NCBI GenBank assembly: GCA_964560875.1
Contig: CAZLMW010000005.1
Location: forward strand, 3,882 to 67,881
Reading direction: 5' to 3'
Source: an uncultured Enterobacteriaceae bacterium
Lineage (GTDB): Bacteria; Myxococcota_A; UBA9042
Length of the DNA: 64,000 nucleotides
Below the pieces are notes generated by a model, which was not told where the DNA came from, did no database searches, and saw nothing but the letters and a program-made list of their open reading frames with translations. Made by a program: the position numbers and the translations under genes. Within the stretch, counting starts at the first letter, position 1. Each line of letters starts with the position of its first letter. This document shows, in pieces, positions 20,911 to 21,055 of the stretch.

Positions 20911-20932
20911 GGCCGCATCGTTGCCGGATGCA

Positions 20933-21046
20933 GACAGCGCGTCAATCCGGACAGCGCGTCAATTCGGACAGCGCGTCAATGCGTCAAGTCTTGTGCCCCT
21001 GACAGCTACTTGCCCCTGACAGCTACTTGCCCCTGACAGCTACTTG
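20933..21046. promoter_or_regulatory. Two sets of 17-bp direct repeats, each x3 (GACAGCGCGTCAAT-type and CCCCTGACAGCTACTTG-type), upstream of the MMPL gene
   Basis: Perfect or near-perfect tandem units at 20933-20980 and 20996-21046. Both share a GACAGC core. Confidence 0.6.
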
Positions 21047-21055
21047 CCAGCGCAG

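Follow-up and report, generated by a model that had tools for sequence, protein, structure and literature searches.

The 145-bp spacer in front of an MMPL-type transporter gene from an uncultured marine Myxococcota species is probably the promoter region of that gene, where two neighboring minisatellites have arisen by replication slippage. Both arrays, here called A and B, were analyzed within a 64-kb stretch of DNA (hereafter the window) and alongside 174 fetched loci. The copy number of array B differs between near-identical strains, which is the behavior of a slippage-prone variable-number tandem repeat (VNTR) and not of a conserved operator. Nothing at the locus points to a new mechanism, and the VNTR class is already well known.

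Two tandem arrays in one intergenic spacer

TRF placed array A at window positions 20933-20980 (period 17, 2.8 copies, 96% matches, consensus GACAGCGCGTCAATCCG) and array B at 20994-21048 (period 17, 3.2 copies, 100% matches, consensus TGCCCCTGACAGCTACT). Searching the 64-kb window yielded exact matches to GACAGCGCGTCAAT from array A at 20933, 20950 and 20967, and to CCCCTGACAGCTACTTG from array B at 20996, 21013 and 21030. The expected number of CCCCTGACAGCTACTTG in the window is 0.05; three copies were reached in none of 100 shuffles, and no further copy was detected in the window even at three mismatches. The two 17-bp direct-repeat arrays that the initial annotation had described upstream of the MMPL gene are therefore real, as evidenced by TRF and exact matches, and they do lie within the 145-bp gap (20911-21055) that separates the minus-strand GTG at 20910 from the end of a Cys/Lys-rich ORF. 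Both show the head-to-tail, high-identity arrangement of bacterial VNTRs or minisatellites, on which TRF and the repeat search agree. As the annotation had also held, they do not form a CRISPR array, since the units are contiguous and lack the unique spacers of similar length that stand between CRISPR repeats.

On the gene strand the spacer reads TAG-CTGCGCTGG-(CAAGTAGCTGTCAGGGG)x3-CACAAGAC-TTGACGCA-TTGACGCGCTGTCCGAA-TTGACGCGCTGTCCGGA-TTGACGCGCTGTCTGCA-TCCGGC-AACGAT-GCGGCC-GTG (Table 1). The GACAGC core ascribed to both units was correctly identified. TTGACG boxes are likewise present on the gene strand, though there are four and not the three first counted, the additional one belonging to the partial copy of unit A. 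Several other elements were sought in the spacer and rejected. A terminator or structured RNA found no support, as the fold was no better than that of shuffles (z = +1.15) and there was no Rfam match; no terminator-like site was seen within the 145 bp. The repeat search found neither inverted repeats nor a MITE at the arrays, and a G-quadruplex formed by the GGGG runs of unit B is unlikely with only 2-3 runs and 13-nt loops.

Table 1 Features of the array-bearing spacer, its flanking genes and one orthologous locus (window coordinates unless a locus is named).
Feature	Position	Strand	Description
Cys/Lys-rich repeat protein gene	21056..21832	-	258 aa, no family match; stop codon (TAG, 21058-21056) abuts array B
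Partial unit B	21053..21064	-	CAGCTACTTACC on + strand, 92% identical, 16-nt offset; spans the TAG stop
Array B	20996..21046	-	three perfect 17-nt units CAAGTAGCTGTCAGGGG on gene strand: 21046-21030, 21029-21013, 21012-20996
Partial unit A, fourth copy	20980..20987	-	TTGACGCA, 8-nt offset
Array A	20929..20979	-	three 17-nt units on gene strand: TTGACGCGCTGTCCGAA 20979-20963, TTGACGCGCTGTCCGGA 20962-20946, TTGACGCGCTGTCTGCA 20945-20929
Probable -35 hexamer, TTGACG	20940..20945	-	first six bases of promoter-proximal A unit
Probable -10 hexamer, AACGAT	20917..20922	-	17 nt after -35; A at position 2, T at position 6
GTG start codon, MMPL gene	20908..20910	-	6 nt after -10; predicted +1 of leaderless mRNA
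MMPL / HAE3-type RND transporter gene	18142..20910	-	922 aa, sterol-sensing-like domain; PF03176 2e-36, PF12349, PF02460
Divergent TetR-family gene	L007 3145..3852	-	adjoins 57%-identical MMPL orthologue in a Myxococcales MAG

The best match of the MMPL ORF is the HAE3 model TIGR00921, at a score below that model's cut-off. The ORF has its first in-frame start at GTG 20910, which the N-terminal alignment of homologues supports as the true one. The nearest MMPL relatives in GTDB (one genome per species) come from uncultured Myxococcales or Myxococcota MAGs and reach at most 57% identity, which places the source species outside that collection; two metagenome scans likewise yielded no close relative. 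The window has a G+C content of ~65%, and the neighboring genes are typical of Myxococcota, including DUF1552 (a 477-aa ORF), DUF1592/1588, an ECF sigma/FecR pair, a CotH kinase and Cys-rich repeat proteins. On the plus strand, a gene for a FadD11-like fatty-acid ligase (16300-18102) converges on the MMPL gene with 39 bp between the stop codons; this pairing may indicate that the transporter handles a lipid.

Repeats are also found inside genes of this region. The MMPL gene contains two in-frame tandem repeats, 15 nt x 3.9 at 20393-20457 (peptide SATES) and 12 nt x 2.8 at 20509-20541 (DKAT). They sit in a low-complexity acidic insert in the first periplasmic loop of the protein, which is longer in the window than in any aligned homologue; the copy number of the repeats is the same in the window and in the conspecific contig L001. 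Several Cys- and Lys-rich repeat proteins are encoded (21056-21832, 25534-26451, 48415-49149, 49171-57639 and 59455-61947); this set includes a 2,823-codon stop-to-stop open frame, and some members match Dicty_CTDC or DUF4215. A further in-frame array of 18 nt x 6.6 occupies 60088-60206.

The predicted promoter of the transporter gene

A sigma-70-type promoter probably drives the MMPL gene and gives rise to a leaderless mRNA. Upstream of the gene, the sequence has the layout TTGACG / 17 nt / AACGAT / 6 nt / GTG, which recurs in two orthologues of 57% identity as TTGACG / 17 nt / AACTCT / 6 nt / ATG (L007) and TTGACG / 17 nt / GAATCT / 7 nt / ATG (L167). We infer a leaderless promoter because of this recurrence and because no Shine-Dalgarno sequence precedes GTG 20910; Shine-Dalgarno-like sequences are present at several other genes of the window. 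The orthologue in L005 has no -35 and shows an extended -10, TGgAATAGT, 7 nt before its ATG. Upstream neighbors differ between these loci, with the TetR gene in L007 and unrelated genes in L167 and L005. TTGACG occurs in the window at only 0.47 per kb per strand, so that two orthologues carrying it at an identical offset go far beyond chance; from this frequency we estimate an event of ~1e-6.

A -35 and a -10 spaced by 16-18 nt, a start codon 6-8 nt further on and the lack of a Shine-Dalgarno sequence characterize leaderless genes of the sigma-70 type. All of these were found here, with a -10 that is weak: AACGAT matches the consensus at three of six positions, for which reason a strict consensus scan reported no promoter. 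The attention that had been drawn to the TTGACG boxes is thus justified in that the promoter-proximal box is the probable -35 of a promoter kept in L007 and L167. Two other promoter types were rejected by eye, a sigma-54 promoter in TGGCAAGTAGCTGTC, where the GC of the -12 element is missing, and an ECF-type promoter, for which there is no GAAC/CGTC pattern. The layout TTGACG / 17 nt / nAnnnT / 6-7 nt / start predicts leaderless expression for this transporter family. The prediction is testable and would add to the knowledge of transcription in Myxococcota.

Copy number and origin of the arrays

Look-ups of exact proteins led to four contigs of the same species from four other assemblies. Two ENA contigs carry two B units, namely ERZ27251152 (L001; 99.82% identity over 22.8 kb with 23 mismatches and one gap) and ERZ27249630 (L002; 99.79% over 15.5 kb with 15 mismatches and one gap). 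The JGI contigs 3300009703 (L173; 99.96%, no gaps) and 3300024344 (L174; 100%, no gaps) carry three, like the window. In both ENA contigs the sole gap relative to the window is exactly one 17-bp B unit, which is the only indel in the 22.8 kb shared with L001 and the only difference of any kind from L001 across window positions 15152-23072. The rest of the 145-bp spacer is identical base for base in the window and all four contigs. Array B thus shows the whole-unit change with unchanged flanks that marks a VNTR (three versus two copies), and array A is invariant at three copies in five of five assemblies; the two alleles are the only ones among these assemblies, which come from few samples.

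The arrays are not an assembly artefact, because four contigs from four other assemblies carry them. Collapse of a unit during assembly of the ENA contigs is unlikely, as the k141 in their names, if it denotes the final k-mer size, exceeds the 55-bp array. As 9 SNPs distinguish L001 from L002, these two are separate haplotypes. The window and L001 are set apart by 23 SNPs, 20 of which fall within ~1 kb (23072-24097) in the DUF1552/DUF1592 gene pair, with identical flanking kilobases, which suggests a recombined or hypervariable patch.

The array units were found nowhere else in the 64-kb window or the 174 fetched loci, the scope within which dispersal was checked. Arrays were absent upstream of every orthologue examined (L003, L004, L005, L007, L167, L168, L169 and L170), a comparison from which the P0002 contig (67% identity) was left out; in L003, L004, L168, L169 and L170 the upstream regions are short or operon-type. 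Partial copies stand at the edges of both arrays, one of them across the stop codon, and these argue for a local birth. Array A, with its three full copies and one partial copy, probably arose by local tandem amplification of a 17-nt piece that contains the -35 hexamer and continues 11 nt into the -35/-10 spacer. Only the promoter-proximal copy is correctly spaced from the predicted -10, the upstream copies being extra -35-like boxes without a -10 partner. Array B probably started where the upstream gene ends, the partial copy across the stop codon being its probable seed, and appears to be the younger of the two because its copies are perfect. It gains and loses whole units in natural populations, as the two- and three-copy alleles show. 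Since gain or loss of whole units keeps the -35/-10 spacing, the arrays are most likely not a dedicated operator but neutral or at most mildly modulating.

Few arrays in the window, or in a further 202 kb of sequence from related Myxococcota, have a period that is not a multiple of three. At thresholds of period >=7, >=2.5 copies and score >=50, only arrays A and B and two intergenic sites in L169 passed; the other TRF repeats of the window, where checked against the ORF map, are in-frame coding repeats. L169 comes from a related marine Myxococcota, and of its two arrays one (11 nt x 4.5, 5012-5069) separates a kinase gene from a divergent GGDEF gene, whereas the other (19 nt x 2.9, 6487-6542) follows the GGDEF gene. 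Intergenic arrays of this kind are sporadic, but they occur beyond this locus.

As a natural locus, it illustrates cleanly how a promoter can have its own -35 region multiplied in tandem and how a stop codon can be the seeding point of a minisatellite. In addition, array B could be used for typing strains of this uncultured marine species.

Alternative explanations and known systems

On the gene strand GCTGTC occurs at 21040, 21023, 21006, 20972, 20955 and 20938, in one 17-nt register with one 34-nt step. Random 17-mers from the window share a 6-mer in register with P ~0.007, so this sharing is unlikely by chance, and pure neutral slippage does not predict it. Two readings fit the observation: an old 17-nt array that split into two subfamilies, its CTGTC repeats seeding slippage, or a real protein-binding core. 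In the latter case the six repeats would be operator sites through which a regulator recognizing GCTGTC(C) controls the MMPL promoter, a possibility that we regard as unlikely. Apart from the shared register, it draws on the orthologues. CTGTCCG directly precedes the -35 in L007, as CTGTCCGGA does in the window, and the CTGTCC core recurs upstream of the L005 orthologue P0006 (57% identity). There, L005 5903-5940 holds a 12-nt tandem duplication (CGCTGTCCAGAC x2) followed by CCCTGTCGAG, and it shares CGCGCTGTCC with unit A of the window. Upstream of this orthologue GCTGTCCAGACC appears twice in tandem, along with two further CTGTC. The TetR gene beside the L007 orthologue further implies that the transporter family is locally regulated in at least one lineage. 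However, L167 keeps the promoter without any CTGTC motif, motif spacings vary by lineage (17, 22 and 12 nt), and a regulon within the window for GCTGTCC, CTGTCCG or CTGTCAGG was rejected for want of positional bias to gene starts. No regulator gene is adjacent, and no winged-helix response regulator was seen among the scanned ORFs of the window. The varying copy number and the 100% identity of the B units point to recent amplification and not to conservation. It is less likely still that the arrays each derive from one half of an ancestral operator, with a CTGTCA-type arm as the source of unit B and a TTGACG-type arm as that of unit A, both multiplied to three copies. Copy number would then set the amount of a GCTGTC-binding regulator, or of RNA polymerase sigma region 4, that the promoter retains. 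The 94-bp spacer of L007 (3853-3946) does contain an imperfect inverted repeat, TGCCTGTCAAGC ... GTTTGACGGGCA, recognized by eye, the right arm of which contains the -35. If true, a natural population of marine myxobacteria would adjust a lipid-type exporter by means of a rheostat that is both heritable and reversible.

Slippage could also have a function of its own if the spacer were a contingency locus, phase- or rheostat-variable, at which changes in the arrays alter promoter strength and tune transporter expression across the population. We consider this improbable, albeit somewhat less so than the split ancestral operator. In its favor, copy number is polymorphic within 130 nt of the predicted start in otherwise near-identical strains, and in array A a -35-like hexamer is repeated just ahead of the core promoter. 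On the other hand, the polymorphic tract, array B, is positioned 86-136 nt upstream of the predicted start, the -35/-10 spacing survives whole-unit changes in either array, and only two alleles are known, with array A invariant. Phase-variable tracts sit between -35 and -10 or within an ORF, and neither array is so placed. Iterons of a replication origin, or a dispersed genome-wide repeat family of the REP/MITE kind, have very little probability. The size range of plasmid iterons includes 17 bp, and this is the sole point in their support. No replication initiator was found nearby, and the setting is one of ordinary chromosomal myxobacterial genes, with the transporter and Cys-rich protein genes as neighbors where an origin would have an initiator gene and features such as an AT-rich stretch and DnaA boxes. 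Across the region both GC content and skew stay flat, and the arrays lack both inverted repeats and copies elsewhere in the window or the 174 loci. Slippage-born minisatellites in the MMPL promoter region remain our preferred explanation.

Among known systems, direct-repeat operators of the OmpR/PhoB type had been put forward for the 17-bp phasing, together with iteron binders. OmpR/PhoB dimers bind direct repeats phased by ~10-11 bp, one helical turn, and the pho box consists of CTGTCAT repeated every 11 bp. The likeness is that the direct repeats here lie at or upstream of the -35, that both units contain CTGTC and that unit B contains CTGTCA. In contrast to those operators, the period is 17 in both arrays. 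A step of 17 bp corresponds to 1.6 turns of the helix. Neighboring units therefore point to different faces, and cooperative same-face binding is not expected. Pfam scans of the main window ORFs found no Trans_reg_C domain, which is weak evidence as regulators can be encoded elsewhere; the regulators present in the window are the ECF sigma/FecR pair 5.7 kb away, an FHA-sigma-54 activator (42301-43686) and a receiver-only protein (58253-59401). Given this phasing, the lack of such a regulator or initiator among the scanned ORFs, the absence of the arrays in orthologues and the variability of array B, the proposal finds little support.

Contingency-locus promoters offer a second comparison. Examples are the Haemophilus hif TA repeats between -35 and -10 and the Neisseria nadA TAAA repeats upstream. 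Slippage-prone repeats in a promoter region are common to these and to the present locus, and the nadA type also lies upstream of the -35. However, the units here are 17 nt long and not 1-7 nt, copy numbers are only 2-3, the arrays leave the -35/-10 spacing unchanged, and there is no known regulator site or expression effect.

The predicted start resembles the leaderless mRNAs of mycobacteria, another GC-rich group in which leaderless GTG starts work (PMC4633059). In both cases a GTG or ATG follows a -10-like hexamer by 6-7 nt without a Shine-Dalgarno sequence, in a layout kept in orthologues. The difference is that the present organism is a myxobacterium and the start is predicted from sequence and conservation alone; a literature search on transcription-start surveys in myxobacteria and leaderless mRNAs in Myxococcus found nothing directly relevant.

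The arrays are most at home among the intergenic VNTRs used in MLVA-type analysis of Yersinia pestis, where 84% of motifs are 7-21 bp long, 54.5% are intergenic and those <400 bp from the 5' ends of genes are less diverse (PMC3689786). Here, too, a head-to-tail unit of 7-21 bp that is not a multiple of three lies in an intergenic spacer, near-identical strains differ by whole units and the origin is attributed to slipped-strand mispairing. Unlike in those VNTRs, a single 145-bp spacer here contains two different arrays of equal period, adjacent to each other and with a common 6-nt core in the same register. One of the arrays consists of copies of the -35 region of the gene itself, and the only two alleles seen so far are those of an uncultured myxobacterium.
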